In this document: positions 1-63,009 of the stretch, piece by piece
Layout: every line of letters begins with the position of its first letter
Position numbering within the stretch: position 1 is the first letter of the stretch
Assembly (NCBI GenBank): GCA_016218825.1
Contig: JACRCV010000075.1
Location: forward strand, 166,358 to 230,357
DNA length: 64,000 bases
Direction of reading: 5' to 3'
Origin: Deltaproteobacteria bacterium
GTDB lineage: Bacteria; Myxococcota; XYA12-FULL-58-9
Program-made: the position numbers and the translations under genes
The notes under the pieces: model-generated
Databases searched by the model: none
Seen by the model: only the letters and a program-made list of their open reading frames with translations
What the model was told of the DNA's origin: nothing

Positions 1-216
1 GGTGACGTTCTTGCCGTCGGCGGTGCGCGCCACCCGTTGCACCAGCTTGCCGGTCTCGCGGTCGCGCAGCAGTAGGAAGCCGCGGTCGGCCTCGGAGGCC
101 TCGATGAAGGCGTCGGTGATCAGCGCCAGCAAGCGGTCGAGGTCCCGGGTCGCCAGCATGTTGCGGCTGACTTGCAGTAACCAGATCAGGCGTTCGTCGA
201 AGGACTCCTGCGGCAT
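1..216 (-). CDS. GAF-domain regulator, N-terminus (partial, continues beyond window start)
   Basis: Reverse strand from ATG at 214-216 reads MPQESFDERLIWLLQVSRNMLATRDLDRLLALITDAFIEASEADRGFLLLRDRETGKLVQRVARTADGKNVT, a typical GAF-domain N-terminus as in sigma54-activator-type regulators. Runs off the window edge, so it is not in the ORF track. Confidence 0.55.
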   Translation of the reverse strand, partial: MPQESFDERLIWLLQVSRNMLATRDLDRLLALITDAFIEASEADRGFLLLRDRETGKLVQRVARTADGKNVT

Positions 217-247
217 GCGGAGGACCGTATCACACAACCGGGGCTCG

Positions 248-811
248 TCACCAACCCCGCGACCCCGGCGCCTCCGGCGGCGCGACGCTGAGGGTCTCGA
301 CCGCGGTGTCGAACGCCGGCAGCCCGCTCCAAAACAGCCGCGGCACCGCCGAGTACGCCAGATCGACGACGACCCCAGAACCGGCGAGCAGCAGCCCGAC
401 CCGACGTCGCGGGCTGTCCTCCAGATCGAAGGCCACGTCGTAGTGGAGCGCCGGCCGGCCGGAGACCACCCGCGGCTCTTGGCGCTGCCAGACCAGACGT
501 CGGTCGCTGGCGAGCGGTGCGAACATCAGGTCGAGGGCGGCTTCGAGCGGGGCGCCGTCGTCGACGACGCCCTGAAGGCTGATGACGGTGTAGAAGGCGT
601 CGGTGCTCGCCGGACCGGCGTAGAGCAGCGCGGCGCCGTCGCCCTGCGGCAGCCACGCGGCCGGAAGCGCCAAACAGACGCCGAGCGCGTCGTGGCAGAC
701 GCTCTGCGTCGGTGGCTCCGGTGGCGGCTCCGGCGGCGACTGGCAGCCGGCGATCCACCACGCCATCGAGGCCGACAAGAGGGTGCGCCGCAGCATAAGA
801 ACGTATACCAT
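248..811 (-). CDS. hypothetical lipoprotein
   Basis: ORF track 248..811. N-terminus MVYVLMLRRTLLSASMAWWIAGC is a lipoprotein signal with lipobox. The overlapping + strand ORF 2..820 is Arg/Pro-rich antisense. Confidence 0.6.
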   Translation of the reverse strand: MVYVLMLRRTLLSASMAWWIAGCQSPPEPPPEPPTQSVCHDALGVCLALPAAWLPQGDGAALLYAGPASTDAFYTVISLQGVVDDGAPLEAALDLMFAPLASDRRLVWQRQEPRVVSGRPALHYDVAFDLEDSPRRRVGLLLAGSGVVVDLAYSAVPRLFWSGLPAFDTAVETLSVAPPEAPGSRGW

Positions 812-826
812 GGAGACTAGACCGTC

Positions 827-947
827 TTCAGGTGGACGTGATCCGGCCCCCGCCCCACTCGGGGGCGGGGGATTCAGGGGGTGGGGGTGGGGAGCGACGC
901 CGCATCGGCGGCGCGGGAATCAGATGAAGGCGAAAACGGTCTAGGCG
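827..947. repeat. structured GC-rich repeat, copy G (subfamily 2), flanked by inverted 13-mers ctagaccgtcttc / gaaaacggtctag
   Basis: Contains hairpin ccccgccccactcgggggcgggg and G-tract gggggtgggggtggggag, then gcgggaatca. About 85% similar to copy E at 46499-46600. Confidence 0.5.
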
Positions 948-979
948 CCGGTACCCACGCGGGGAGTCGAGGTTGCAGC

Positions 980-1297
980 ATGGCGGATGACGATCGCAGA
1001 GTCGAAGCCCGGCTGGACCTCGGCGGCCGGGGCCTGTCGGCGACGCCGGAGCGGATCGGCGAGCTCGAGCGACAGGCGGCGCAGATCGAGAAACAGACGC
1101 GCGCCAAGCCGGCCAAGACCTTCGACAAGGTGATGGCGGAGCGCGGCGGGGCGCCGCCGCCCGTGGTCAGCGCCAAGGAGAAGAAGCGTCGGGCGCTGCC
1201 GAAACAGGGGCCGCGCCTCGGGCTGCGGCATCCAGCACAGCGTGCCGCGTACGGCCGCGACGACGACAGTCAGGACCCGGTGGTGATCAAAGGATAG
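980..1297 (+). CDS. hypothetical small charged protein
   Basis: Internal ATG of ORF 881..1297 (MADDDRRVEARLDLGG...PVVIKG). High GC3 and coiled-coil-like composition; no recognisable domain. Confidence 0.3.
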   Translation: MADDDRRVEARLDLGGRGLSATPERIGELERQAAQIEKQTRAKPAKTFDKVMAERGGAPPPVVSAKEKKRRALPKQGPRLGLRHPAQRAAYGRDDDSQDPVVIKG

Positions 1298-1314
1298 CGC
1301 GAGGGGCGGACTGA

Positions 1315-4296
1315 ATGGTCGAAGAGTTGATGGCACTGGGCGCGGCCGCGGTGCGCCGCCTGGGCGTCGTCGCCTCCCTGTGTGGCGCTGCCTGTCTCGA
1401 GCCCGGCGGCCCTGCTCCCGACAAGGGCGCGGTGGCGTGCGTCCGCGACGGCGACTGCGCCGGTGACGAGCGCTGCGCCGGCGGGTACTGCGAGAAGCTC
1501 TCCGGCACCGACGCCGACGTCACCCGACCCCGGCGACCGGCGATCGTGCTGCTCACCGAGTCGGTGCGCTTCGTCGACGTCGGCCCGGGCCGGCGGCAGA
1601 CGCGGACGGTGCGGCTGACGAATCACGGCGACGACAACCTCCTGGTGCACCGAATCGACGTCGCCGGCGATTCGGGGCGGGTGCGCGTCGACCCGGCGCC
1701 GGACGGCTTCGTCTTGGTGGTGCCGCCGCAGGTCGAGTACGCGCTGACCGTCACCTTCGTCGGCTCGGACGGGGTGGCGTTCGTGGGCTCGCTGAACATC
1801 GACAGCAACGACCAGGCGCTGAGCCGGGCGTCCCTGCCGGTCGCGGTGCAGTACACCGGCCGGCCGTTCTTGATCCTCACCGGAGACGAGGCCGGCCAAC
1901 ACGCGGAGAACCTGGCCGACAAGGCCGTCGACCTCGGGCCGCAGCCGACCGGGCTCGCACCGCCGCACCGCTTCTTCCTGAAGAACCTCGGCATCGGCGG
2001 CGCCTTCGCGGTGTTGGAGCCGCCGAGGTTGGTGGGCGACGCCGGCTTCAGCGTCACGATCCGACCGGCGCCGGATCTGGACGGACGTTATCGCCTCGGC
2101 CGGTTCGCGGCATTCTGCGACACCATCGCCGACTGCGAGGGGGCGGCGGACGCGTGTCGCGGCCGCGTTTGCGTCCAGGCCGACCTGCCGGTGGACGAGC
2201 TGGTGCTGGAGGTCGTCGCCGATCCGGGGCTCGGCCAGAGCGGCGCCACCAGCCTGCAGGTGCGCTACGGCACCCCGAACGGCGCGGTCAGCGACGAGGT
2301 GCGCGTGAGCCTTACGGCGCGGGGCGTCGCGGCCGACCTCTTCCTGGATCCGGTCCAGGTCGACTTCGGGGACGTGAGCGTCGGTTTTCCACAGTCGCGC
2401 CTGGTCGAGATCCACAACCTGAAGAGCGCCGCCTTGAGCGTCACCGCGCTCGATCTGCTCGGGCCTGCGGCCTCCGGTGCCACGCCGCTCTTGCGGGCCG
2501 AGGTGCCGCAGGGCGCGCCGCCGTTCGTGCTCGAGCCCATGGCGACCGCGATCGTCCGTCTCGACTTCGTCGCCGCGGCCGCGAACCTCGGTGACACCAC
2601 GGCGACTCTGGCGATCGAGACCGATGCCGCGGCGCTGCCCTACGTGGTGGCGATCACCGGGCGTTCACGGATCGGTCCGGACCTGGTGACGGTGCCGCTC
2701 CTCGAGCTCGACGCCGGCGTGACCCATGTGCGCCGCGCCGCCACGGCGATGCTCCGCGTCGGCAACGCCGCCGAGCCGACCGCTGATCCGCTGCGGTTGA
2801 CCGCGGTCCACGCGGCCTCGACCCACGGCCAGGGCGAGATCAGGGTGAGCCCGGTCGCCGTCGATCTGGCCGTTTATCCTGGGGATTTTGTCGAGGTCGC
2901 GGTGGAGTGTACGCCCGCGGTGATCGGAGTGCTCGAAGGCATCGTGACCCTGGAGAGCGACGCGCCCGACAACCCGGCGCGGCGCCTCGAGGTCCGCTGC
3001 GAGGGGATCGATCCCACCCTGACCCTGGGTTACGAGAGCCTGGACAGGGCGGGGGTGGGCACCTTCCAGCTCGGCGACGACCACCCCTGTCGCGACGATG
3101 CCGCCAGCTATCCGAGTCCGTGTCTCGACGTCGGCCGGCTGTACGTGAGCGGCGCCCGGCGCGCCCCGCTGACGCTCGGCAACGTCGGTGTCGGTCCACT
3201 CACCGTGCGCGCGGTCGCGGTCTCGCCGGCGGACGCCGGCTTCGCCGTGGACGGCGCGTTCCCGCTGACGCTCGCTCCCGGCTCAGGCGCCGAGGTCGCG
3301 GTGACGTTCACCGGCGGCTCGGCCACCGAGACGCGAGGCGCGGTGTTGGCGTTCGACCACGACGACGACGACACCGCGGCCACCATCCACCTGGTCGCGT
3401 CCACCGCCGACTGCGGCGGCACGCTGCGGGGCTGCCCAGCGATCGCCGAGTGTGTGACGACCGCCACCCACGACGCCTGTTGTCGGGCCTACGACGACCC
3501 GCGCGCCTGTGGTCCGAGCTGTGCCCCGTGCCCGGCGAAGAGCCACACCCGCCGCGCCTGCGTCGGCGACGCTTGTGCTTACGAATGTCTCTCCGGTTGG
3601 CACGACCTCAACGGCAACGGGGACGGTACCGGCGGCAGCATCGACGACGGCTGCGAGTACGCCTGCGTCGCGACCAACGCCGGCGTCGAGGTCTGTGACG
3701 GCCTCGACAACGACTGCGACGGCCTTGCCGACAACGGCCTGGTGCTCTTCGACTCGCTGGGCGCGGAGGCGCCGCAGGTGTGCACCCCCGGGACCAGCGC
3801 CGGCTTCCTCGGTTGGTATCAGGAAGCCGACTTCGGCAGCGTCACGGCGGTCGGCGGCAGCGCCATGGAGCTCACGGTCTTTCCCGGCCGGCTCTATCGC
3901 TCCGACCCGCTCGGTCCGGCGGGCGACGTCGACTGGCTGCGGGCGGTGTTCGCGGAGGTCGACGCCTGCGCGACCATCGGTTTCCGCATGGACATGGAGC
4001 TGGCGGCGCCGCCGGGGACTCGGCTGCAAATGTGCGGTCGCCTGCACGGCGCCGACGTCGCGCCGCTGTTCACGCTGCCGTGCGACGAGATCGGCGGCGA
4101 GCCGGTGCTCGACGTCTGCGCGGTCGCCGACGGGGTCACGGCGGCGTCCCTGCGTTTCGAGTGGCCGGAGAGCTGCGGCGTCGCCGACGATCGGGTCCTC
4201 GATCTTCGGGTGCAGGCGGCACCCGGCGCCACCGGAGGGGCCGCGGCGTCGTGCGCGCCGTACGTCCTGACGTTGTCCGGCGCCCGTCTCTATTGA
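1315..4296 (+). CDS. large secreted protein with repeated Ig-like/'choice-of-anchor D'-type beta-sandwich domains and a C-terminal Cys-rich MopE-like metal-binding motif
   Basis: ORF track, 993 aa. Signal-like N-terminus, then repeated ~100-aa modules (e.g. VDVGPGRRQTRTVRLTNHGDDNLLVHRIDVAGDSG). C-terminus ...CVGDACAYEC...CDGLDNDCDGLADNG matches the myxobacterial MopE/'putative metal-binding' motif. Confidence 0.8.
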   Translation: MVEELMALGAAAVRRLGVVASLCGAACLEPGGPAPDKGAVACVRDGDCAGDERCAGGYCEKLSGTDADVTRPRRPAIVLLTESVRFVDVGPGRRQTRTVRLTNHGDDNLLVHRIDVAGDSGRVRVDPAPDGFVLVVPPQVEYALTVTFVGSDGVAFVGSLNIDSNDQALSRASLPVAVQYTGRPFLILTGDEAGQHAENLADKAVDLGPQPTGLAPPHRFFLKNLGIGGAFAVLEPPRLVGDAGFSVTIRPAPDLDGRYRLGRFAAFCDTIADCEGAADACRGRVCVQADLPVDELVLEVVADPGLGQSGATSLQVRYGTPNGAVSDEVRVSLTARGVAADLFLDPVQVDFGDVSVGFPQSRLVEIHNLKSAALSVTALDLLGPAASGATPLLRAEVPQGAPPFVLEPMATAIVRLDFVAAAANLGDTTATLAIETDAAALPYVVAITGRSRIGPDLVTVPLLELDAGVTHVRRAATAMLRVGNAAEPTADPLRLTAVHAASTHGQGEIRVSPVAVDLAVYPGDFVEVAVECTPAVIGVLEGIVTLESDAPDNPARRLEVRCEGIDPTLTLGYESLDRAGVGTFQLGDDHPCRDDAASYPSPCLDVGRLYVSGARRAPLTLGNVGVGPLTVRAVAVSPADAGFAVDGAFPLTLAPGSGAEVAVTFTGGSATETRGAVLAFDHDDDDTAATIHLVASTADCGGTLRGCPAIAECVTTATHDACCRAYDDPRACGPSCAPCPAKSHTRRACVGDACAYECLSGWHDLNGNGDGTGGSIDDGCEYACVATNAGVEVCDGLDNDCDGLADNGLVLFDSLGAEAPQVCTPGTSAGFLGWYQEADFGSVTAVGGSAMELTVFPGRLYRSDPLGPAGDVDWLRAVFAEVDACATIGFRMDMELAAPPGTRLQMCGRLHGADVAPLFTLPCDEIGGEPVLDVCAVADGVTAASLRFEWPESCGVADDRVLDLRVQAAPGATGGAAASCAPYVLTLSGARLY

Positions 4297-4636: not shown

Positions 4637-6436
4637 ATGGAGCGAGCAGCACCGGAAGAGCGGTTTGGGCGCTACACGTTGGTCCGCCGGCTGGCGTTCG
4701 GGGGCATGGCCGAGATCTTCTTGGCCAAGCTGCGGCTCGAAGCGGGCTTCGAGAAGGACGTGGTGCTCAAGCGCATCCTGCCGCAGTTTGGCGCCGATCC
4801 GGCGTTCGTCGCGATGTTCGTCGACGAAGCCAGGCTGGCGGCGCGGCTCTCGCACCCCAACATCGTCCAGGTCTCCGACTTCGGCGCCGAGGACGGCGTC
4901 TACTTCCTGGCGATGGAGTATGTCGACGGCCTCGATCTACGGGAGATCCTCAAGGATCGCCACGATCGCCAGCAGCGCTTGTCGCCGGCGGTGGCCGCGG
5001 CGATCGGTGAAGGCGTGGCGCGCGGTCTCGCCTATGCCCACGATCTCGGGGACGCCGACGGCCGGCCGCTCGGCATCGTCCACCGGGACGTGAGCCCGCA
5101 CAACATCATGGTCAGCCGGACCGGCGACGCGAAGATCATGGACTTTGGCATCGCCAAGGCGGCGGGGCGCGCGACCCGCACCGCCACCGGCCTGATCAAG
5201 GGCAAGGTCGCCTACATGGCGCCCGAGCAAGCCGCGGGCCGCGACATCGACCACCGCGCCGACCAGTTCGCGCTCGGCCTCGTGATCTGGGAGTGTCTGA
5301 GCGGCCAGCGCATGTTTCAGGGCGGCTCCGATCTCGAGGTGCTGCGGGCGGTCGTCGAGTGCCGGGTTCGTCCGGTGACCGAGCTCTGCCCAGAGGTCCC
5401 GGACGCGCTGGCGCAGATCCTGTCGCGCACCCTGGCGCCGACCCCGGAGCAACGCTACCCGCACCTCGCCGATCTGGCTCGCGAGCTCGCGACGTTTCGC
5501 TTCGCTCTCGGTGCCGGCGGCGCCGTCCACCTCGGGGACCTCGTCACCGGCGGCGCGCCCCGCGCTGAGGTCAGGCGCAAACGGGCAACGCTGCCGCTCG
5601 GCGCCGCCGCCTCGGCTCCGGCGGCCGAAGCCCCCGAAGTTCCCACCTTGGCCACCCGCGCCAGCGACGCGGCCGAGACCACGGTGGTGACCCCGGAGCC
5701 ACGGATCGCTTCGCGGTCGCCGCCACGTCCGACGCTGCAGCGGTCCGGGGCACGGATGCGCTGGGGGCTCGCGTTCTTGTCAGTGGCGTCGTCGGTGGCC
5801 GTCGGTGGCCTCGCGAGTCGGGTTCGCGACCGCCGCCACGCCCTGGAACGACCCGCCGGCGAGGTCAGGCCGATCCCCGAGGTCGCCGCCGGCTCGGTCC
5901 GGGTGACGAGCATTCCCGCCGGCGCCATGCTGTTCTTGGACGGTCTCGCCACCGGCCTCACGACCCCGGTCACCTTGCCGCGCCTACCGCTCGGCGGGCG
6001 CTGGCCGGTGCGCCTCGATCTCTTTGGCCACCTATCGTGGCACGGCGAGGTCACCGTGACGCCCGGGGACAGCCTGGTGGCCGCGACGCTTTCACCGCTC
6101 GGCCCGCCGGCAGCGCCGCCGCCAGATACGGCGCCCACCGCCGCGCCGGCGAAGCCGAGCGCCGCCGGACGTCACGAGGGCGGCGGTCGTCCCGGTGACC
6201 GCGAGCCCGGCAAGCGGCGGGGCGTGGGCGAGGCCCGCCTCTGGCTGCGTTCGACCGGCGCCTGGTTCGACGTGTTCCTCGACGACACCAAGCTCGGCAC
6301 GACCCCGCTATCGGGGGTCGCGGTTCCGGCCGGACATCTCGAGCTCCGTCTGGTGAACGCCGAGGCGGGCCTGGAGCGCCGCCTGGTCCTCGATCTGGCG
6401 CGCGGCGAAGAGGCCCGCCGCACCTACACTCCCTGA
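4637..6436 (+). CDS. Ser/Thr protein kinase with C-terminal PEGA domains
   Basis: Hanks kinase motifs are present: GGMAEIFLA, VLKRI, HRDVSPHNIM, DFGIAK, APE. Two C-terminal PEGA-like beta modules (VRVTSIPAGAMLFLDG..., FDVFLDDTKLGTTP...). Start ATG 4637 (MERAAPEERFGRYTL). Confidence 0.9.
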   Translation: MERAAPEERFGRYTLVRRLAFGGMAEIFLAKLRLEAGFEKDVVLKRILPQFGADPAFVAMFVDEARLAARLSHPNIVQVSDFGAEDGVYFLAMEYVDGLDLREILKDRHDRQQRLSPAVAAAIGEGVARGLAYAHDLGDADGRPLGIVHRDVSPHNIMVSRTGDAKIMDFGIAKAAGRATRTATGLIKGKVAYMAPEQAAGRDIDHRADQFALGLVIWECLSGQRMFQGGSDLEVLRAVVECRVRPVTELCPEVPDALAQILSRTLAPTPEQRYPHLADLARELATFRFALGAGGAVHLGDLVTGGAPRAEVRRKRATLPLGAAASAPAAEAPEVPTLATRASDAAETTVVTPEPRIASRSPPRPTLQRSGARMRWGLAFLSVASSVAVGGLASRVRDRRHALERPAGEVRPIPEVAAGSVRVTSIPAGAMLFLDGLATGLTTPVTLPRLPLGGRWPVRLDLFGHLSWHGEVTVTPGDSLVAATLSPLGPPAAPPPDTAPTAAPAKPSAAGRHEGGGRPGDREPGKRRGVGEARLWLRSTGAWFDVFLDDTKLGTTPLSGVAVPAGHLELRLVNAEAGLERRLVLDLARGEEARRTYTP

Positions 6437-6504
6437 GCACATCGATCGCGACCGGTGTCGATGCGGATCCCTGAGGCCTCGGCCCGTCCGCGGCGTTGAG
6501 GGAG

Positions 6505-6625
6505 GCATAAATACATCGAAGAGATATTCTCAGGGGAGCTCGAGAAAAGAATCACATGGATGGAGGATTGTGAGGCGAATATTTCTAGGAGAAGATTGTT
6601 AGACGAATATTGTGAGAAGAATAGC
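6505..6625. promoter_or_regulatory. AT-rich island (~35% GC) with three ATATT-core repeats (GATATT at 6524-6530, AATATT at 6578-6583 and 6606-6611) and GAGAAGA purine repeats
   Basis: Seen directly in the sequence. AATATT should occur less than once per 64 kb at this GC content, yet there are two copies plus a GATATT variant within 90 bp. Confidence 0.4.
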
Positions 6626-6661
6626 AGCGCCCGATGGGCGCGGCAGTCCGGGTTGTGGACA

Positions 6662-7471
6662 ATGACGGCGGTGCTGTGGCAGGGATGGGGCGTGGAGACG
6701 GCCGAGATCGTCGATGGGTGGCTGGCGGCGCTGTTCGAGCGTCACCGCGCCAGTCTGACTTTTCAAGAAGTCCGGCGTGGGGTCCAGGCGCTGTCGCGCT
6801 CCTACGTCGAGCTGCGCGACCGGCGCCGGGCGCCCAAGGCGCTGGACGGCGCCGGCAAGCGGGCCGCGTTCGCCTGTTTCTTTACGCCGCTCCATTTTCT
6901 CCTCGTTCGTGAGCTCCTGGTGCAGCTGGCTCCGGCAGCGGTCGAGCGGGTCGTCGATCTCGGCTGTGGTTGTATGGGCGCGGGGCTGGCCTGGGCGACG
7001 GCGTCGACTACTGCGCAGACCGAGGTCCACGGTGTCGATCGCAATCGCTGGGCGCTGGACGAGGCGGCGCGCAACCTGTCGTGGTTTGGCCGCCGCGGTC
7101 GCGCGGTGCTCGGGGACCTCTGCTCCTTTCCGTCGCCGGCGGGGGCCACCGGCGTGGTCGTGGCGTTTGCCGCGAATGAGCTCGACGACGACGGTCGACA
7201 GCGCCTGCTGCAGCGGCTGCTCAGCGGGGTGGCCGCGGGCGCGTCGGTTCTGGTCGTCGAGCCCATCGCCCGCAGCTTGACCGCGCGGTGGTGGCCGGGC
7301 TGGGAGGCCGCGTTCGTGGGTGCCGGCGGACGGACCGATCTCTGGCGCTTGCCGGTCGAGCTGCCGCCGCGGCTTCGCGAGCTGGACCGGGCCGCCGGCC
7401 TGGATCACCGCGAGCTCACCGCCAGGACCCTGTACGTCGCGCGCCGCTCGGCCGACGCCGCGGTTCGTTGA
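6662..7471 (+). CDS. class I SAM-dependent methyltransferase-like protein
   Basis: ORF track 6560..7471. Motif VVDLGCGCMGAGLAW resembles SAM-binding motif I. I prefer the in-frame ATG 6662 because 6560-6661 is AT-rich, unlike any other coding DNA here. The 6560 start remains possible. Confidence 0.6.
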   Translation: MTAVLWQGWGVETAEIVDGWLAALFERHRASLTFQEVRRGVQALSRSYVELRDRRRAPKALDGAGKRAAFACFFTPLHFLLVRELLVQLAPAAVERVVDLGCGCMGAGLAWATASTTAQTEVHGVDRNRWALDEAARNLSWFGRRGRAVLGDLCSFPSPAGATGVVVAFAANELDDDGRQRLLQRLLSGVAAGASVLVVEPIARSLTARWWPGWEAAFVGAGGRTDLWRLPVELPPRLRELDRAAGLDHRELTARTLYVARRSADAAVR

Positions 7472-8069: not shown

Positions 8070-9309
8070 CCGCAGGGCGCCGGACATCCTGCTGGAGCGC
8101 TATCTGGCGGGCGACCTCCCGGCGGCGATGGCCGAAGAGGTGGCGAAGCTGATCGCCCTTAGCGACGCCACCCGCGCGCGGCTCCGGGAGCTCGAGAGCG
8201 AACGCGCTGCCTTCCTCGCCGCCAACCCGGCGGCGCCGTTTGCGCATCAGCTCGCGACCCGACTCGCGGTCGACGGTGGCGCCGGTCCGCGTCGCCGGCC
8301 CTGGTGGGCCTGGGCTCTGGCGCCGGCGTTGACTGCGGCCGCGACCGCGGTGGTGGTCCTGGCGGTGGTTCGCCAGGTGCCCGACGTTGCACGCCCGCTG
8401 GCGAGCGTCCCGGCGCAGGATCTGGCGCTGCTCGCGCCCGAGGAGAGCGCGACTCCCGCGCCCGCGACCTCTTCCCGTTTCGCGACGCCCCCGCCCCCGA
8501 CCGCCGCGCCCGAGGCCGAGGCCGTGCGGCAGGCGGCCGCGGAGCCGGCGGGCGGCGCCAAGCCGCAACCGAAGAAGGACGCTCCGGTGCCCGGCCGGGC
8601 GCGATCGAAGGCCAGGGCGGCGCCCGACCCCGGCAAGGGCGGCGCGGCTGGCGGTGGAGGCCTAGGCGGGCTCGGCGACCGGGACGAGCGCAAGAAGGCG
8701 AAGGAGGAAGGGCAAAAGACCTCGGCCCCCGCGGCGTCGAAGCGGGACGACGCGATGGCCGCGCCGGCCGTCCCGATTCAGGTCGCCGACCAGCCGGCGG
8801 TGGCGACGCCGCCCCCGCCCCCGGCGCCGGTTGCGGAGTCGAGGCCGACGCGGGCTCCGGTGGCGATCGAACGGGAGATCGCGGCGCCAGCAAGCTCCCC
8901 CGGGGCCGCGGCGTCGGTCGGAGCTGCCGCCGCCGACGTGTCCGCCCCGCCCGCGGACGACAGCGGCGCAGGGATCACCGCGGTCGAGGCCGCGAAAGGG
9001 CGCAAAGCGTCCGCGCCGGTGCGGCCCGAGGTGCTGGCCGCCGTGAGGCGCCACGCTGCCGCGCTCGCCCTGTGCTTGCGGCCGGCGTTTGCCGCCGGCG
9101 AGCTGGGCTCCGGGAAGTACACCCTGTTGCTGGACTTCGTGATCCAGCCGAGCGGTGCGGTGATCAAGGGCCGGCTGCGGGGCCCGGAGGCCCTCGTCGC
9201 CAGCAGCGCGCGCCTCTGCGTCGTCACCGCGATGCGGAGCTGGCGACTCCCCCCTCCGGACGGCGACGAGGTCGTCACCGCGCTGCCGGTGACCGTTGCG
9301 ATTCCGTGA
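8050..9309 (+). CDS. anti-sigma factor (single TM, Pro/Ala-rich periplasmic linker, AgmX/PglI-like C-terminal domain)
   Basis: Overlaps the sigma gene by 20 nt. N-terminus LERYLAGDLPAAMAEEV resembles an anti-sigma motif. TM segment WWAWALAPALTAAATAVVVLAVV. The C-terminal ~80 aa resemble myxobacterial AgmX/PglI C-terminal (TonB-C-like) domains. Confidence 0.65.
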   Translation: MATQSHSRRAPDILLERYLAGDLPAAMAEEVAKLIALSDATRARLRELESERAAFLAANPAAPFAHQLATRLAVDGGAGPRRRPWWAWALAPALTAAATAVVVLAVVRQVPDVARPLASVPAQDLALLAPEESATPAPATSSRFATPPPPTAAPEAEAVRQAAAEPAGGAKPQPKKDAPVPGRARSKARAAPDPGKGGAAGGGGLGGLGDRDERKKAKEEGQKTSAPAASKRDDAMAAPAVPIQVADQPAVATPPPPPAPVAESRPTRAPVAIEREIAAPASSPGAAASVGAAAADVSAPPADDSGAGITAVEAAKGRKASAPVRPEVLAAVRRHAAALALCLRPAFAAGELGSGKYTLLLDFVIQPSGAVIKGRLRGPEALVASSARLCVVTAMRSWRLPPPDGDEVVTALPVTVAIP

Positions 9310-30430: not shown

Positions 30431-30506
30431 GCCCCCGTAGCTCAGTTGGATAGAGCGCGGGATTCCTAATCCCGGTCTGCCACAGGTTCGACTCCTGTCG
30501 GGGGCG
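30431..30506 (+). tRNA. tRNA-Arg (anticodon CCT)
   Basis: GCCCCCG-TA-GCTC-AGTTGGATA-GAGC-G-CGGGA-TTCCTAA-TCCCG-...-GGTTCGACTCC-...-CGGGGGC-G, followed by an encoded CCA. Anticodon loop TT-CCT-AA. Coordinates ±1. Confidence 0.85.
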
Positions 30507-32124: not shown

Positions 32125-32290
32125 CGGCCACGACACCGGGCAATCGATTTCTCGCGTTCTTGATTCCCGGCGGGCGCTTCGCGCCCGTCCTCCCCACCCC
32201 CACCCCGGAGCGTCGCCTTCGGCGCCGCTCTCGGCCCGCCCCAGATTGGGGCGGGCAACATCGGCAAAGCCCGAGAGCTCGATCGCCCTG
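32125..32290. repeat. structured GC-rich repeat, copy B (subfamily 1, inverted relative to copy A), flanked by 9-bp direct repeat GGCCACGAC (32116-32124 and 32291-32299)
   Basis: The reverse complement is ~90% identical to copy A over ~150 bp, including terminus cagggcgatcgag, the hairpin, G-tract and cccgccgggaatca. Seen directly. Confidence 0.7.
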
Positions 32291-32311
32291 GGCCACGACG
32301 TCCTCCGCCGC

Positions 32312-36503: not shown

Positions 36504-37945
36504 AGGGGCACCTGCCGCTCGTCGCCCTCGTCGGCCGCCCGAACGTCGGCAAGTCGACGCTCTTCAACCGCCTGGTCGGTGAGCGCGCCGCCCTCGTCGA
36601 CGACCGCCCCGGCGTCACCCGCGACCGGCTGTTCGGCGAGTGCGAGCACGAGGGTCGGGTGTTCCGGGTGGTCGACACCGGCGGCTTCGAGCCGCGCGCC
36701 GACGACGAGCTCTGGGTCTCGGTGCGGGAGCAGACGACGCTGGCGATCGACGAGGCCGACCTGGTGCTCCTGGTGTTGGACGGCGCCGCCGGCCTGCAAG
36801 CGACCGATCGCGACATCGCGGCGCTGTTGCGCCGCGGCGCCAAGAAGGTCGTCGCCGTGGTCAACAAGATCGACACCGGCGCCCACGAGGACCGCCTCGC
36901 CGACTTCTACGCCCTCGGCTTCGAGTCGGTGCTGCCGGTGAGCGCCGAGCACGGGCGCGAGGTGGGGGCGCTCTGCGACCTGGTGGTCAGCGTCCTCGAC
37001 CCACCGCTCGCGAGCGAGGCCGACCTGCTCGCGGCGCCGCTGCCGGTCAGGGCCGAGGAGCCGGAGGCGGCGGTCTCGAGCGTCATCGAGTGGCAGGGCG
37101 GGCCGGTGCGGGTCGCGGTGATCGGCCGGCCGAACGTCGGCAAGTCGTCGTTGGTCAATGCGCTCGTCGGCGAGAAGCGCCTGGTCGAGTCGCCGGTCGC
37201 CGGCACGACGCGCGACGCCGTCGACTCCGAGGTGACGATCGACGGCCAGCCGTTCGTGTTCATCGACACCGCCGGCATGCGGCGCAAGTTCTCGATCGCC
37301 GAGCGCCTCGAGCGCTTCGCGGTGATGGTCGCGGTCCGCAGCCTCGATCGCGCCGACGTGACGTTGGTGGTGCTCGACGCGACCACCGGGGTCACCGAGC
37401 AGGACGCCCACATCGTCGGCCTGGCGAACGAGCGCGGCAAAGGGGTCCTGCTGGTGATGAACAAGTGGGACCTGGTCGAAACCGAGGAGCGCCGCCACGA
37501 GCTCAAGGACGCCGTGCGCTATCGCTTGCCCTTCGTCCCCTACGCGCCGCTGTTCACGACCTCGGCGCACACCGGCAAGGGCGTGTCGCAGCTCCTGGGG
37601 GCCGCGGTCGCCGCGCAGCGCGAGCGGCATCGCCGGGTGCCCACCGCCGAGCTCAACCGGTTCTTCGCCGCCGTGGTCGACCGCCACCCGCCGCCGATCC
37701 AGAACGCCAAGCGCCCCCGACTGTACTTCGTGACCCAGCCCCTGATCCGGCCGCCGACCTTCGTGTTCGCGGCGAGCCGCATCGAGGCGATCCCGGAGGC
37801 GTACCGGCGCTACCTCGCGAACGCGCTGCGCGAGCGCTATGGCTTCGAGGCCACGCCGTTGTGGATCAAGTTCCGCCCGCACGGCGGCAAGAACAAGCGC
37901 ACCGGCACCTATCAGTCGAGCAAACGCCCGGCCGCGAAGCGCTGA
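36500..37945 (+). CDS. der: ribosome-associated GTPase Der (EngA), tandem GTPase domains
   Basis: ATGA overlap with era. Two G-domains (GRPNVGKSTLFN...; GRPNVGKSSLVN...) and a C-terminal KH-like domain. Confidence 0.9.
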   Translation: MKGHLPLVALVGRPNVGKSTLFNRLVGERAALVDDRPGVTRDRLFGECEHEGRVFRVVDTGGFEPRADDELWVSVREQTTLAIDEADLVLLVLDGAAGLQATDRDIAALLRRGAKKVVAVVNKIDTGAHEDRLADFYALGFESVLPVSAEHGREVGALCDLVVSVLDPPLASEADLLAAPLPVRAEEPEAAVSSVIEWQGGPVRVAVIGRPNVGKSSLVNALVGEKRLVESPVAGTTRDAVDSEVTIDGQPFVFIDTAGMRRKFSIAERLERFAVMVAVRSLDRADVTLVVLDATTGVTEQDAHIVGLANERGKGVLLVMNKWDLVETEERRHELKDAVRYRLPFVPYAPLFTTSAHTGKGVSQLLGAAVAAQRERHRRVPTAELNRFFAAVVDRHPPPIQNAKRPRLYFVTQPLIRPPTFVFAASRIEAIPEAYRRYLANALRERYGFEATPLWIKFRPHGGKNKRTGTYQSSKRPAAKR

Positions 37946-37993
37946 GGCGCGCTGCGGCCTGCTTTGCTTCCCGCGCGGGAATCAAAGGATAGG
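37946..37993. repeat. repeat fragment, copy F (3' terminal part: ...cccgcgcgggaatcaaagg)
   Basis: Fills the 48-bp spacer between the convergent der and rne stop codons. Matches the cccgcSgggaatcaa(a)g end of copies A, C and E. Confidence 0.4.
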
Positions 37994-40818: not shown

Positions 40819-40837
40819 CAGCGGACGCGAAGTGCGT

Positions 40838-41036
40838 CGATGTTGCCCGCCCCACCCGGTCGGGCACCGAGCAGCTGGCTTTGCCCGTGCGAGGTGCGGG
40901 GGCACGGGGGGACGCAGAGCCGGCGCGTCACTCCGTTGTCGCCCTCGGACCACGTGCCGGCGGGCGGTCCCCCCGCCAGGTTGCTGGGGCGCCAAGCGCC
41001 CGCCGGGAATCAAAGAAGCGAGAACCAGTCGATTGC
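40838..41036. repeat. structured GC-rich repeat, copy C (subfamily 1 variant with longer, divergent centre)
   Basis: Shares 5' cgatgttgcccgccccacccgg and 3' gcgcccgccgggaatcaaagaagcgagaaccagtcgattgc with copy A. Confidence 0.55.
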
Positions 41037-41116
41037 TCTGACGCAAAGTGCGATGGAGTATAGCAATCCGCGCCTCTTCGCGGTAAGAGGCCGGATCCGA
41101 AAATCGTTTCCAGGAG

Positions 41117-43122: not shown

Positions 43123-43146
43123 TCGATCAGGTCCGAGGGGCTCGAG

Positions 43147-43935
43147 ATGAGGATGCGCTGGCCGCAAGCCCTCGTGGCCGCGATGCTGGCGTGGGTCGCC
43201 GCCGATCTCCTCGTTGGCCGACTTCCGGGGTGGCCCGAGGCCGCGGGGCTTGCCGTCATGTTCGGCGGCCTGGCGCTCGCGGCGATGCGCCTCTCTGCGC
43301 AGGGCTTCGTCAAGGCGTTCTGCCGGGCCGCGGGGGCGCGGGCGCGGATCGCGCTGACCTTCGACGACGGCCCCGATCCGGCGACGACACCACAGGTGCT
43401 CGATGTGCTGCGCCGCCACGGGGTGCGGGCGACCTTCTTCGTCCTCGGCGCCAAGGTGGACGCCCATCCGCAGCTCGTCGCGCGTCTCAGAGAGCAGGGG
43501 CACGAGGTCGGCACCCACGGCTACGACCACGATTGGCGCTCGGTGCTGACGGTCGCGGGCGCTCGGCGTCAGGTGCAGCGCGGCGTCGACTCGCTGTTGC
43601 GGGCCCTCGGGGTGCCGCCGGTCTTCTTTCGTCCGCCGTACGGCGTCGTGACCCCGGCCTTGGCGGTGGCGCTGGCGGGCGCTCGGCTGCAGGTGGTCGG
43701 GTGGTCGCTGCGCACTCGTGACGGCACCGGCCGCGGCGAGCCGCTGGCGCGCGCCCAGTGGGTCGTGCGGGTGGCCCGCGCCGGGGACGTGATCCTGATG
43801 CACGACGCGCCGCGCGAGCCGGGGGGACGGATGCCGCTCGGCCCGGCGATGTTGGAGTCGGTGATCGTCGGCCTGAAGGATCGTGGTTTCGAGCTCGTGG
43901 TGCTTTCTGATCTTCTCGCCCGAGCCGCGGCTTGA
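43147..43935 (+). CDS. polysaccharide deacetylase (NodB homology domain)
   Basis: IALTFDDGP, HGYDH and FFRPPYG are CE4/NodB motifs. N-terminal TM. Confidence 0.85.
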   Translation: MRMRWPQALVAAMLAWVAADLLVGRLPGWPEAAGLAVMFGGLALAAMRLSAQGFVKAFCRAAGARARIALTFDDGPDPATTPQVLDVLRRHGVRATFFVLGAKVDAHPQLVARLREQGHEVGTHGYDHDWRSVLTVAGARRQVQRGVDSLLRALGVPPVFFRPPYGVVTPALAVALAGARLQVVGWSLRTRDGTGRGEPLARAQWVVRVARAGDVILMHDAPREPGGRMPLGPAMLESVIVGLKDRGFELVVLSDLLARAAA

Positions 43936-46083: not shown

Positions 46084-46497
46084 ATGTCGAAGCGTCGGAT
46101 CTGTGTGGTGAGTGCCGCCTTGGTGCGTGAGGGACGCTACCTCATCACGCAGCGCCTCGAGAAGGCGGTGCTGCCGTTGTTGTGGGAGTTCCCGGGCGGC
46201 AAGGTCGAGGAAGGCGAGAGCGACGAGGTGGCGTTGAAGCGCGAGCTCAAGGAGCGCCTCGGCATCGACGCGGTGGTGAAGAAGCGCATCGCCTCCACCG
46301 AGCGGGAGTATCGCGACTACGTCGTCGAGATGCACCTGTACTCGTGCGACCTCGGGCCGGTGGAGCCGCGCAAGGTCAACGTCCGCGATCTGAAGTGGGT
46401 CAACTCCAAGGAGTTCGGCCGCTACGAGTTCACGCCCGCCGACCAGGGCTCGATGGACGCGCTGCTGTTCGGCGACAAGAAGACCGCGAAGCGTTAG
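46084..46497 (+). CDS. NUDIX hydrolase (MutT-like)
   Basis: Nudix box GGKVEEGESDEVALKRELKERLGI. GAGGAGGGGG Shine-Dalgarno. Confidence 0.85.
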   Translation: MSKRRICVVSAALVREGRYLITQRLEKAVLPLLWEFPGGKVEEGESDEVALKRELKERLGIDAVVKKRIASTEREYRDYVVEMHLYSCDLGPVEPRKVNVRDLKWVNSKEFGRYEFTPADQGSMDALLFGDKKTAKR

Positions 46498-46498
46498 G

Positions 46499-46600
46499 CC
46501 GCATGCATCACTTGATTCCCGCGCGGCCGCTGCGCCCGCGCTCCCCACCCCCACCCCCATCCCCCGCCCCCGGGTGGGGCGGGGGCGACGAACGCTGGAT
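46499..46600. repeat. structured GC-rich repeat, copy E (subfamily 2), flanked by perfect 14-bp direct repeat CGCGAAGCGTTAGG (46485-46498 and 46601-46614)
   Basis: Seen directly. The duplicated 14-mer contains the stop codons of both convergent flanking genes. Confidence 0.65.
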
Positions 46601-46609
46601 CGCGAAGCG

Positions 46610-47434
46610 TTAGGCGCGCTTCAAGATCCAGTCGGCGATCTCGGCGTGGAGCTTCACGCGCCCGGTCTCGTTCAGGATCTCGTGCATCTCGCCGTCGCGC
46701 CGCCACACGGTCTTGTCGGGCGATTGGATCCGCTCGGCGAAGGCGGCGTTGGCCGCCATTGACACCACGCGGTCGCGCTCGGCGTAGGCGAACAACAACG
46801 GTTGCTCGACGCGGTCGCGGGCGGCGAGGCGCGCCCACGCGGTCTGCACCGCCTTGAACCAGCCGGCGGACGCGGTGGTGAACACCAGCGGGTCGCTGCG
46901 ATAGGCCTCGACGATGCTCCGGTCGTGGGTCAGGTCGTTCGGGTCGATGCCCGAGGGCAGCGTCATCGTCGGCAACAACGCGCCCAGGATCCGGCCGGCG
47001 AGGATCTTCGCCTTCGGCACCGAGGCCGGCAGACCCAACATCGGGCTGGTGATGACGAGACCCGCCCAGGGTGTCTTCTTGCTCGAGACGTAGTCGAGCG
47101 CCACCAGACCGCCGGCGGAGTGCCCGAGCAGGAAGCGCTTCTGGCCCTGGACCAGGGTGAGCGCCGCGTCGACGTCGAGGTGGTACTCCTCGAAGCGCTT
47201 GACGTAGCCGCGCCGGCCGCTCGAGGTGCCGTGGCCGCGCAGATCGACCGCCACCACGGCGATGCCCTTGGCGCAGAAGGCTTCGGCGAGCTCCCGGTAG
47301 CGTCCCGAGTGCTCGGCGTAGCCGTGCAGCACCAGGACCTCGGCCGTGGCGGCGGCCGGGGGCGCAAAGCGCTGGGCGAACAGGGCGGCGCCGTCTGCGG
47401 CGCGTAACGTCGTCTCGGTGTGCGACATGGTCAT
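46610..47434 (-). CDS. alpha/beta-hydrolase (lysophospholipase/monoacylglycerol-lipase-like)
   Basis: Internal start MTMSHTETT... of ORF 46610..47809. HGYAEHSGRY and GHSAGG (GxSxG nucleophile). Confidence 0.8.
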   Translation of the reverse strand: MTMSHTETTLRAADGAALFAQRFAPPAAATAEVLVLHGYAEHSGRYRELAEAFCAKGIAVVAVDLRGHGTSSGRRGYVKRFEEYHLDVDAALTLVQGQKRFLLGHSAGGLVALDYVSSKKTPWAGLVITSPMLGLPASVPKAKILAGRILGALLPTMTLPSGIDPNDLTHDRSIVEAYRSDPLVFTTASAGWFKAVQTAWARLAARDRVEQPLLFAYAERDRVVSMAANAAFAERIQSPDKTVWRRDGEMHEILNETGRVKLHAEIADWILKRA

Positions 47435-55502: not shown

Positions 55503-55508
55503 CGGCGG

Positions 55509-55552
55509 CGGGGCGGGCAACATCGGTCCAACTCGAGAGCTCGATCGCCTTG
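55509..55552. repeat. repeat fragment, copy D (44-bp 5'-terminal piece of subfamily 1, inverted; possible internally deleted element 55487-55552)
   Basis: The reverse complement caaggcgatcgagctctcgagttggaccgatgttgcccgcccc matches the first 44 bp of copy A with one mismatch. Confidence 0.6.
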
Positions 55553-61368: not shown

Positions 61369-63009
61369 ATGAAGCTCACCCCCTGGTCAAGGCGATCGAG
61401 TTCTCGAGTTGGACCGATGTTGCCCGCCCCACCCGGGGGCGGGCCGAGAGCGGCGCCGCAGGCGACGCTCCGGGGTGGGGGTGGGGAGGACGGGCGCGAA
61501 GCGCCCGCCGGGAATCAAAGAAGCGAGAGCGCGATTGCCCTGACCCCCTGGTGCCGGCTCCTTGCCATCGTTGCGCTGTCGATCGGCGGCTGTGCCCGCG
61601 AGCTCCCGGGCGACACGCCGCCGGGCAAGGCGTTCTACTACCCGGTCAGCGTCACGGTGGCGCCGAACGGCCTCCATGCCTACGTCGTCAGCTCGAACTT
61701 CGACCTGCACTACAGCTCGGGCTGGGTCTCGGTCGTGAGCCTCGAGAGCCTCTTGGACGGCTTGCCCATCGAGACCACGGTGGTCTCCGAGGCGAAGGTG
61801 CTGTCGCTCGCGGGCGGGCTGAGCCTGTCGCGAAGCGGCACGATGGCGGTCACCGCGCACCGCGGCGCCGCGGCGCTGTCGCTGCTCGAGATCGGTGACG
61901 ACGGCAAGACGATCGGCTGCGGCGTCCAGGGCGACACCACGGATCTCAGCTACAAGGAGCGGCTCACCGACTGCGATCGCGCCCACATGCTGCAGACCGC
62001 GTGCACCGCGCCGCAGCTCGAGGACGCCGATCGGCCCGCCGGCTGTCCCTGGGAGCAAGACGGCGGACGTCGGGTGTTCGGGACGTCGCTCAACGATCTC
62101 GAGCTCGCCGACCCGTTCGCGACCGCGATCTTCGAGGTGCCGGCGGCGAGCGGCGGCACCGAGCCGTTGCTCGCGGTTTCCCACTTGACCAGTGGCGACC
62201 CGTCCGTCGGCCAGACCAACCAGCTGCTGCTCTTCGACGTCGAGTCCGGCACGACGGCGGGCGAGTCGGTCGTCTTGGCGCCGCGGCACGCGGTGCGGCT
62301 GGGAGGTGGCGGCAACCTGGGTGTCGCCGCGCTCGCGGTGCGCTCCGACGCTGCCGGCACGTTCCTCGCCGCTGCCACCCAAAAGGCCTTCACCGGCGAG
62401 TCGCAGGATCCGAGCGCGGTCTACGTCGTCGACGTGACCAGGACGCTTTCCGACCAGCAGGACCGGGTGTCATCCCATTCAATCAATGCCGAGGTCGGCG
62501 GTGTGAACCTGGCCGGGATCACCTTCGCCGCGAACAACCCCGACCTGGCGTTCGTGACCAACCGTATTCCCGACAGCGTCGTGACCTTGGACACGTCGAT
62601 CGAGACCGTCGACGAGCGCGACTCGCTCGGGACCGTGACGGTCGCGCGTCGGCCGCGCTTCGCGGTGCTCTCGGCGCAGGCCTTGCAGCCGCGTCCGGCG
62701 GGGCTGCTCTACGTCACCCGGGCGGCGGGGGAGGATCTGCTGGCGGTCGCGAGCTTCGCCGACAACGTGGTCTACCTGTTCTCGGTGCATGGGAGCGAGC
62801 TGCGCCCGACCGGGCGCCTGCCGGTGCCGGGGTACGGCCCGTTCGCTCTCGCGCACGTCGCCCGCGACGGCAGCGACTTCCTGCTGGTGACGACGTTCTT
62901 CACCCATGCGCTGGTGGTCTTCGACGTCACCGGCGACGACGCCGCGCGGTTCCGGTACGTGACCGAGCTCCGGTCGGGCGTGCCGCCGGCCGGCGATCCG
63001 GCGCGGTAG
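61369..63009 (+). CDS. YVTN-type beta-propeller lipoprotein whose signal-peptide coding region carries an in-frame repeat insertion
   Basis: ORF track. Codons 1-6 read MKLTPW. The 152-bp element plus duplication (165 bp, in frame) follows, then ...LTPWCRLLAIVALSIGGC lipobox. Downstream are YVTN-like 40-residue repeats. Confidence 0.6.
   Translation: MKLTPWSRRSSSRVGPMLPAPPGGGPRAAPQATLRGGGGEDGREAPAGNQRSESAIALTPWCRLLAIVALSIGGCARELPGDTPPGKAFYYPVSVTVAPNGLHAYVVSSNFDLHYSSGWVSVVSLESLLDGLPIETTVVSEAKVLSLAGGLSLSRSGTMAVTAHRGAAALSLLEIGDDGKTIGCGVQGDTTDLSYKERLTDCDRAHMLQTACTAPQLEDADRPAGCPWEQDGGRRVFGTSLNDLELADPFATAIFEVPAASGGTEPLLAVSHLTSGDPSVGQTNQLLLFDVESGTTAGESVVLAPRHAVRLGGGGNLGVAALAVRSDAAGTFLAAATQKAFTGESQDPSAVYVVDVTRTLSDQQDRVSSHSINAEVGGVNLAGITFAANNPDLAFVTNRIPDSVVTLDTSIETVDERDSLGTVTVARRPRFAVLSAQALQPRPAGLLYVTRAAGEDLLAVASFADNVVYLFSVHGSELRPTGRLPVPGYGPFALAHVARDGSDFLLVTTFFTHALVVFDVTGDDAARFRYVTELRSGVPPAGDPAR
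61388..61539. repeat. structured GC-rich repeat, copy A (subfamily 1, reference copy), flanked by 13-bp direct repeats ctCaccccctggt (61375-61387) and ctGaccccctggt (61540-61552)
   Basis: Termini caaggcgatcgag ... gcgcgattgcc form imperfect terminal inverted repeats (GGCRATCG). Hairpin gcccgcccc-acccg-ggggcgggc. G-tract ggggtgggggtggggagg at 61473-61490. Confidence 0.75.

Follow-up and report, generated by a model that had tools for sequence, protein, structure and literature searches.

Between a NUDIX (MutT-like) gene and an alpha/beta hydrolase gene that converge on each other in a genome of the Myxococcota (Deltaproteobacteria bacterium, assembly GCA_016218825.1, contig JACRCV010000075.1) lies a 101-bp segment, here called copy E, that probably represents the recent insertion of a short, non-coding and non-autonomous repeat element into the junction of the two genes. 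The window, that is, the whole stretch of this contig that was analysed, is 64 kb long with a G+C content of 71%, and coordinates are those of the window unless another contig is named. That copy E was inserted with duplication of its target is well supported, and as an event it is ordinary. More unusual is the family to which copy E belongs, with a core that sits in several vehicles, a hypervariable and always-pairing hairpin, and long target duplications in copies where one or both inverted repeats are missing. We file it as a previously undescribed family of small non-autonomous intergenic repeats that resemble miniature inverted-repeat transposable elements (MITEs) and bacterial interspersed mosaic elements (BIMEs), with a likeness to BOX elements.

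Target duplication at the convergent junction

An earlier reading of this DNA, made without database searches (the sequence-only reading), had proposed that copy E was inserted at the stop codons of the two convergent genes and duplicated 14 bp containing both stops. An exact search of the window indeed places CGCGAAGCGTTAGG at 46485-46498 and 46601-46614, with both stops included, and no third match occurs in the 64 kb even when one mismatch is allowed. The target duplication thus stands, but its proposed length does not: the full perfect repeat measures 15 bp (CGCGAAGCGTTAGGC, at 46485-46499 and 46601-46615), and it stretches to 18 nucleotides (nt) with one mismatch as GA[C/T]CGCGAAGCGTTAGGC. 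Because the GGAT that follows rightward also ends another member of the family, copy A, it is most likely element sequence, and the duplication is therefore taken as 15 bp. A 4-bp TTAG duplication of the IS5-like kind, considered by analogy with the CTAG of copy A, was rejected, as it leaves 11 identical bases unexplained and inverted repeats are absent.

How much weight can a 15-bp repeat bear in DNA of this composition? Of 100 Markov-simulated 64-kb windows, 19 contained some direct repeat that was 15 bp or longer and whose copies lay 30-400 bp from each other, so the length of the repeat is not decisive by itself. What is non-random is the combination of a family copy bracketed to the base, the presence of both stops inside the repeat, and the absence of the arrangement from the orthologous site of relatives. 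The two genes are confirmed: the NUDIX product recurs as an identical protein with Pfam domains in an independent gene call on a contig of the same organism, and the identical 274-aa hydrolase product (lysophospholipase-like; PF00561/PF12146/PF12697, Abhydrolase/Hydrolase_4) was called independently on the Logan contig L082. In the window, their stops are 112 bp apart. When the insert is deleted together with one copy of the repeat, the junction reads ...GACAAGAAGACCGCGAAGCGTTAGGCGCGCTTCAAGATCC..., with both reading frames intact and the stops sharing TTAG; the reconstructed empty allele is AAGACCGCGAAGCGTTAGGCGCGCTTCAAGATCC, and it translates as ...FGDKKTAKR* forwards and ...EIADWILKRA* backwards. 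We infer from this reconstruction that the stops would have overlapped at TTAG in this lineage and that this would have been the exact sequence before the insertion.

The insertion also created an inverted repeat of 15 nt (13 of the 15 positions complementary) at 46595-46631, in which the right end of the element and the right duplicate face the 3' coding end of the hydrolase gene and the loop of 7 nt contains the stop codon of that gene. This structure may serve as a new hairpin at which transcripts end.

Table 1. Positions of copy E, its parts and neighbours, and of the other family members and related sites in the window
Feature	Position	Strand	Description
NUDIX (MutT-like) gene	46084-46497	+	137 aa; TAG stop 46495-46497; PF00293/PF14815 on identical product
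Left copy of 15-bp duplication, CGCGAAGCGTTAGGC	46485-46499	+	Encodes final NUDIX codons (A K R) and stop
Copy E, inserted element	46500-46600	+	101 bp, bracketed by duplication; no terminal inverted repeats
Box 1, TTGATTCCCG	46512-46521	+	In every copy
Hairpin 1, GCGCGGCCGCTGCGCCCGCGC	46521-46541	+	Weakest hairpin 1 of the family; one C-C mismatch
Box 2, C-rich tract CTCCCCACCCCCACCCCC	46541-46558	+	With hairpin 3, gives five minus-strand G-runs
Hairpin 3, CCCCCGCCCC-CGGGT-GGGGCGGGGG	46561-46585	+	Perfect 10-bp stem
Right copy of 15-bp duplication	46601-46615	+	Holds hydrolase stop (TTA 46610-46612) and its last codon
Alpha/beta hydrolase (lysophospholipase-like) gene	46610-47434	-	274 aa; stop TAA (TTA 46610-46612)
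Copy A	817-944 (unit 821-940, ~120 bp)	-	9-bp inverted repeats ACCGTYTTC; CTAG at 817-820 and 941-944
Copy B, long form	32126-32299 (element 32135-32290)	+	~19-bp terminal inverted repeats; 9-bp direct duplication GGCCACGAC
der/RNase G convergent junction	37934-37993		Flank motif GCGAAGCGCTGAGGCGCGC, then box-1 palindrome TTTGCTTCCCGCG/CGGGAATCAAA
Copy D	40824-41052 (element 40837-41039)	-	Left inverted repeat, box 1, hairpin 1, divergent middle, hairpin 3; no right inverted repeat
Solo right-hand module of long form	55508-55552	+	3' arm of hairpin 3, tail, right inverted repeat
Copy F, long form	61375-61552 (element 61388-61539)	-	B-type ends; 89% identical to copy B

The empty site in relatives

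Exact-protein look-ups with the NUDIX and hydrolase products returned only the source metagenome-assembled genome (MAG) and short contigs of SRR12113407, and among them no empty allele. A scan of a genome collection anchored on the UvrD-like helicase gave at least 600 matches, owed to universal helicase motifs; among the matches listed, identity did not exceed 46-47%, and neither the NUDIX nor the hydrolase gene accompanied any of them. Syntenic contigs of related organisms were reached via NUDIX homologues instead. On L083/L084 (84% NUDIX identity), L085/L086 (85%) and L088-L091 (74%), the stops of the two genes are separated by 5, 16 and 48 bp, respectively, and neither the element nor the 15-bp repeat is present at the orthologous junction. 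The convergent pair is kept in the 84-85% relatives, and the gene order UvrD-NUDIX-hydrolase of L083 is that of the window. The comparison that the sequence-only reading had called for, an empty site with overlapping stops in related genomes, accordingly came out in part: the convergent stops nearly abut and the element is missing, but literal overlap was not seen. No relative shows a spacer of ~100 bp without the repeat, the finding that would have made the repeat look coincidental.

The claim that each gene keeps an intact 3' end through the duplicated target is borne out as well. Besides the two intact frames of the reconstruction, the NUDIX stop falls at the identical residue in the window and in the 84-85% relatives (137 aa, as in the homologues P0002 and P0004), and relatives carry sequence homologous to the left copy of the duplication at the native 3' end of their NUDIX genes, for instance GGGAAGCGCTGA in L085. 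Copy E being a family member, bracketed by its duplication and absent from relatives, its insertion at the convergent stops is upheld.

Anatomy of the core

The family core was defined by aligning the copies of the window with five copies from four metagenome contigs of 60-70% G+C. It spans ~75 nt and comprises, in order, box 1, hairpin 1, box 2, an extra hairpin or spacer in some copies, and hairpin 3. Copy E is 88% identical to copy A over 77 nt (846-922, on the opposite strand), and the short forms score profile hidden Markov model E-values of 1e-15 to 1e-20. The family sequence of box 2 is CTCCCCACCCCCACCCC. As both boxes formed part of the pattern used for the metagenome search, their invariance in the metagenome copies follows from the search itself, which is not true of hairpin 3 or of how hairpin 1 behaves. 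Hairpin 3 reads CCCCCGCCCC-NNNN-GGGGCGGGGG across the family, and in the L095 copy it carries a compensating change, G->T in one arm and C->A in the other.

Hairpin 1 pairs in all nine copies and does so using eight different sequences. Its stem of 7-10 bp, in which the final G of box 1 and the opening C of box 2 form the closing pair, has folding energies of -11 to -20 kcal/mol and z-scores down to -5.7. Between copies A and E, five of the 19 hairpin-1 positions differ, whereas the remaining ~55 nt show just a single substitution and a 3-nt indel. It is only the individual hairpins that stand out in this way; the RNA fold of the whole of copy E is no better than that of shuffled sequences (z -0.9, -1.1). 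On the strand opposite the core (46543-46585, minus), GGGGGCGGGGGATGGGGGTGGGGGTGGGG contains five G-runs of 4-5 nt separated by spacers of 1-2 nt, a stretch that is the same in all cores and overlaps hairpin 3; by its letters it is a textbook G-quadruplex motif, predicted to be a strong one. Just outside the core, copies A and E have CATC...GGATC in common. TTGAT stands directly 5' of TCCCG in all copies and was considered as a target motif, but the sequence upstream of TTGAT is conserved within subfamilies.

At its gathering threshold, Rfam matched only a tRNA (30431-30506) in the whole window, and at E<=10 it gave two chance-level matches (13-15 bits) over 46400-46700. Neither strand of 46300-46800 contains a terminator-like site or a canonical promoter; hairpin 3 of copy E runs into CGACGAACG, with no U-tract, and a TTT follows hairpin 3 in L095 only. 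A reading of TTGATTCCCG as a T-loop-like tRNA remnant was rejected, there being no complementary T-stem 5' of it, and proline-rich coding repeats at 8486 and 8810 were set aside because they resemble hairpin 3 by composition only.

Other copies in the window

The window holds four full cores, copy D (which has a divergent middle and lacks the C-rich box) and two partial copies. These are not one type of element, since the common core sits in at least three differently bounded vehicles. The sequence-only reading had given copy A (which we take to be the copy at 846-927) a 13-bp duplication and had seen the differing duplication lengths as odd for a single transposase. Both points need correction. 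In copy A, CTAGACCGTCTTC at 817-829 recurs at 932-944 as its reverse complement, so that the repeat is inverted and not direct, and resolves into the 9-bp inverted repeats and CTAG of Table 1. As for the lengths, the copies are structurally different elements that have only the internal core in common, and different duplication lengths need not mean one transposase behaving oddly.

The neighbours of copy A are divergent genes, a lipoprotein gene at 248-811 on the minus strand (HY903_15055 in the source MAG) and a gene at ~977-1297 on the plus strand. The open reading frames (ORFs) 2-820(+) and 941-1336(-), which would suggest stops here, are spurious by the phase of third-position G+C (GC3), so copy A lies between divergent start codons; naive ORF lists mislead throughout this window. 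The same divergent pair occurs on L109 (62% and 49% identity), where the start codons are 46 bp apart as against 165 bp in the window. No trace of copy A or its arms is found in the syntenic L109, and the arms are for this reason assigned to the element as 9-bp terminal inverted repeats plus the 4-bp CTAG.

Copies B and F represent the long form, with an inverted-repeat consensus of CARGGCRATCGAnnTCTCG; the duplication of copy F, ACCCCCTGGT, is 10 bp when perfect and 13 bp with one mismatch. Just after hairpin 3 of the long forms (32234-32262, 61416-61444), GGGCAACATCG is a near-copy, in direct orientation, of the left terminal repeat GGGCAATCG, and copy D ends exactly at this internal motif (40837-40859), as if at an alternative right end. 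The solo module at 55508-55552 immediately follows the stop codon of one gene and precedes the next, and the end of the first of these genes, GCGATCGCTGA, resembles inverted-repeat sequence.

Copy D is flanked by a 13-bp direct duplication with one mismatch, which lies over the likely TTG start of a gene for an outer membrane protein (OMP), and it is not found at the syntenic site in L083. Its reconstructed empty site encodes (TTG)RPLLLVTVVLGSSHLSPAHA, in agreement with the signal peptide of the L083 orthologue. The sole mismatch between the duplicates is in the gene-proximal copy (TTG->TCG); the duplicates are 216 bp, or 72 codons, apart, and the OMP frame is open across the entire element. 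It is therefore conceivable that the protein starts further downstream or carries an N-terminal extension of 72 residues. In the same L083 contig, a DUF2914 gene at 6057-6839, between a PQQ-repeat gene and a polysaccharide deacetylase gene, is without counterpart in the window (43123-43935).

A further site of interest is the convergent junction of der and the RNase G gene, where the spacer measures 48 bp in the window versus 20 bp in L083. Its flank motif GCGAAGCGCTGAGGCGCGC (37934-37952) is identical to the reconstructed empty site of copy E at 20 of 22 positions, an alignment only modestly above background, as four of 1672 control windows score equally. The pattern GCGAAGCG-N(1-4)-AGGCGCGC occurs at two sites only in the window (0.01 expected), namely the site of copy E and this box-1-bearing junction, which may be a remnant copy or reflect a preferred target. 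The duplications of copies D (GACGCRAAGTGCG) and E (GACCGCGAAGCG...) also start alike, and both contain a GCGAAG/GCAAAG mini-hairpin, two cases only; together with the motif at the der junction, this likeness hints at some choice of target, which we treat as a lead. The hairpin-targeted integration suggested by the sequence-only reading would be one possibility here.

Copies in other organisms

Five further copies were found on four metagenome contigs (L092, L093, L094 with two, and L095). The L092 copy is of the long MITE-like form, like copies B and F, and the short forms of L093 and L094 fit snugly between convergent stops. The spread is patchy, with two copies in 7 kb of L094 and none in 190 kb of its relatives (aldolase proteins 90-95% identical; L097 at 88% nucleotide identity), in which the neighbouring genes differ and thus do not allow the exact empty site of a plain short form to be rebuilt. 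A small minus-strand gene at 672-815 of L094, between plsB and the aldolase gene, is also missing from these relatives; its product is a putative lipoprotein of ~48 aa (MKRTLLLALLVTAC...), and an element copy lies just downstream. The orientation of the element relative to adjacent genes is inconsistent across copies, which makes a strictly strand-specific function in host transcripts less likely. Short-read contigs of SRR12113407 (L081 at 1772-1831, L082 at its 3' end) stop within the element at the common C-tract, indicating that the family fragments assemblies of this genome. These breaks, the patchy spread around L094 and the lack of copies A and D in syntenic relatives speak for mobility of the family. 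Pattern scans of viral contigs for the family gave no matches, and a literature search on myxobacterial MITE and repetitive extragenic palindrome (REP) families and on MITEs at convergent stops yielded nothing relevant and no description of this family.

Comparison with known systems

The family has much in common with MITEs such as the Correia elements of Neisseria: its members are 100-160 bp long, encode nothing, occur between genes in multiple copies, have target-site duplications and fold into strong secondary structures, and, like MITEs, they often adjoin gene ends, where transcript ends can be altered. The long form (copies B and F, and that of L092) and copy A, which combine inverted repeats with a duplication, fall under the classic definition of a MITE. 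Copy E agrees with it in being short (<~600 bp), non-coding, multi-copy and flanked by a target-site duplication, but it is no classic MITE, because it has no terminal inverted repeats and consists of little beyond the conserved structured core of ~75 nt. Correia elements, by contrast, duplicate TA, far less than the 15 bp of copy E, and are unlike it in having terminal inverted repeats. A further departure from MITEs is that the same internal core occurs within at least three differently bounded elements, and no parent insertion sequence (IS) was identified.

BIMEs/REPs of E. coli and BOX elements of pneumococci resemble the family in their modular boxes and hairpins, present or absent from copy to copy, in their extragenic location and stable stem-loops, and in their preference for gene 3' ends and convergent junctions. 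Their boxes, however, bear no sequence similarity to those described here. REPs and BIMEs also lack flanking target duplications and have a conserved GTAG head, whereas the 101-bp insert of copy E contains neither GTAG nor CTAC and is flanked by a duplication; no gene for a REP-associated tyrosine transposase (RAYT) is linked to the family. Palindromes derived from IS200/IS605 would fit the hairpins near both ends of copy E and its want of inverted repeats, but not its 15-bp duplication. Such elements insert 3' of a fixed tetra- or pentanucleotide, the role for which TTGAT was considered. For a casposon-derived element, the duplication length of 14-15 bp fits copy E only (the other copies have 4, 9-10 or 13 bp), and copy E has no inverted repeats. 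Nor does copy E look like an intrinsic terminator, its G+C-rich hairpin being without a U-tract.

Direct repeats of 8-514 bp have been reported for IS1549 and IS1634 (IS1634 family), for which there is no mechanistic model (PMC2266710). They provide a precedent for one bacterial element giving duplications of very different lengths; they differ, though, as complete ISs from Mycobacterium and Mycoplasma that measure 1.5-2 kb, encode a transposase of their own and have inverted repeats, and the length differences seen here follow element architecture and do not arise from one element. In the IS4 family, duplications are ~10 bp long, with 9-13 bp depending on the subgroup (PMC2266710), similar to the 9-10 bp of the long forms B and F, a similarity that we regard as a lead only. 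The ends of the long form, CARGGCRATCGA, matched no IS, and no transposase was seen near any copy. A resemblance to a presumed 'CAGGG' terminus of ISAs1 is a tentative lead, on which the literature search was uninformative.

How copy E may have been inserted

Insertion of copy E would have begun with a staggered cut of the two target strands, 15 bp apart; the element would have been joined to the protruding ends, and filling in of the single-stranded gaps would have generated the duplication. The 15 bp would have happened to cover both stops, providing each gene with a 3' end of its own. Because the duplicated segment spans both stops, the insertion would have been harmless, which is probably why it survived in a gene-dense genome. 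The same logic applies to copy D, whose duplication covers a start codon just as that of copy E covers the stops. As the mover of copy E, our best guess is a transposase or integrase that would act in trans and recognise the structured core and not inverted repeats.

Several points weigh against this account. In the absence of terminal inverted repeats, no standard recognition site of a DDE transposase is visible in copy E, and there is no evident action of a conventional transposase of that type on its ends. In the 64 kb covered, the family could be linked to no transposase, integrase, RAYT, Cas1 or reverse transcriptase. A duplication of 15 bp exceeds that of most IS families, and the short forms of L093 and L094 (all three) show no detectable duplication, such that 15 bp may be atypical for the core. 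The relatives with an empty site are only 84-85% identical, none of them has stops that literally overlap, and by comparison with the window their hydrolases have 2-5 additional residues.

Could host replication or repair have made the insertion with no transposase at all? In a template switch, ~100 nt would have been copied from another copy of the element, with a return 15 nt upstream; in end joining, a free element fragment would have been captured at a staggered break. Both would duplicate the target without needing inverted repeats, and this accords with the fact that copy E, without inverted repeats, and copy D, without one of them, have nonetheless duplications of 15 and 13 bp, as against 9-10 or 4 bp in the copies bounded by inverted repeats. 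The core of copy E is, moreover, flanked on each side by 13-15 nt of unique 'filler' with no match elsewhere in the window, its right junction falls in a patch where the element end resembles the target (GGATCGCG versus AGACCGCG), and the likeness of its empty site to the box-1 junction flank (37934-37952) could guide homology-assisted copying. That likeness, however, rises only modestly over background, no donor copy with matching filler was found in the 64 kb of genome, and the filler is not random: since copies A and E share CATC...GGATC, part of it belongs to the subfamily. We give such an origin a minor but appreciable chance. A different alternative would involve no insertion whatsoever, the ~100-bp spacer and its core being ancestral (e.g. 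a conserved bidirectional terminator) and lost in relatives, and the repeat being coincidental or a later local duplication. The core is often found between convergent genes (copy E, L093, both copies of L094), and in such G+C-rich DNA a repeat of 15 bp or more at close range is not exceedingly rare. Nevertheless, three independent lineages of relatives, with spacers of 5, 16 and 48 bp, have no element, and a precise loss would need to have restored abutting genes three separate times; the repeat is a complex sequence that contains both stops and brackets a family copy to the base, and copy E has no U-tract or canonical terminator. We consider this explanation highly improbable.

Another possibility is movement through an RNA or single-stranded DNA intermediate, by target-primed reverse transcription or by a hairpin-recognising integrase of the HUH/Y1 or Cas1 type, routes that would naturally yield ends set by structure, incomplete copies, and duplications that are long or vary in length. 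Conserved single-stranded boxes alternating with always-pairing stems of free sequence are typical where an element is recognised in the form of a folded single strand, truncated copies do occur (copy D lacks its 3' end and the module at 55508-55552 its 5' end), and duplication lengths range from 9 to 15 bp, or up to 18 bp. Duplications of 14-15 bp are, furthermore, characteristic of integration by casposase (Cas1). On the other hand, no gene for a reverse transcriptase, a Y1 transposase or Cas1 was seen near any copy (no Cas1-directed search was made), elements of the IS200/IS605 and REP types leave their target unduplicated where copy E duplicates it, casposons have inverted repeats where copy E has none, there is no poly-A or other 3' signature, and the orientation of copies with respect to flanking genes is inconsistent. 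This route accordingly appears improbable to us. A bolder idea, which we hold to be doubtful although not quite as far-fetched, is that the core of ~75 nt is itself the mobile unit; an integrase or reverse transcriptase would recognise its folded single strand, and the core would insert in the absence of inverted repeats, give 13-15-bp duplications at gene termini bearing a GCGAAG-type mini-hairpin, and have become nested repeatedly in ordinary MITEs.

Significance

Taken as the recent insertion of a non-autonomous element, copy E shows clearly how mobile DNA can be tolerated at the borders of genes in a compact genome: the duplicated target was long enough to include both stops, leaving both genes intact, and copy D presents the same situation at a start codon. 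For annotation, the insertion explains the gap of ~100 bp here between convergent genes that (nearly) overlap in relatives, and it also explains why short-read assemblies break at the NUDIX/hydrolase junction. The family itself, undescribed so far, is present in several uncultured Myxococcota-like lineages, in differently bounded forms and with conservation confined to single-stranded boxes between which the stems are free to vary in sequence. Should the core prove to move on its own, it would stand for a new class of bacterial mobile elements defined by their structure, and it might also be a portable module for transcript ends or G-quadruplexes; either capacity, self-mobility or service as a terminator or G-quadruplex module, would make the family of wider interest.

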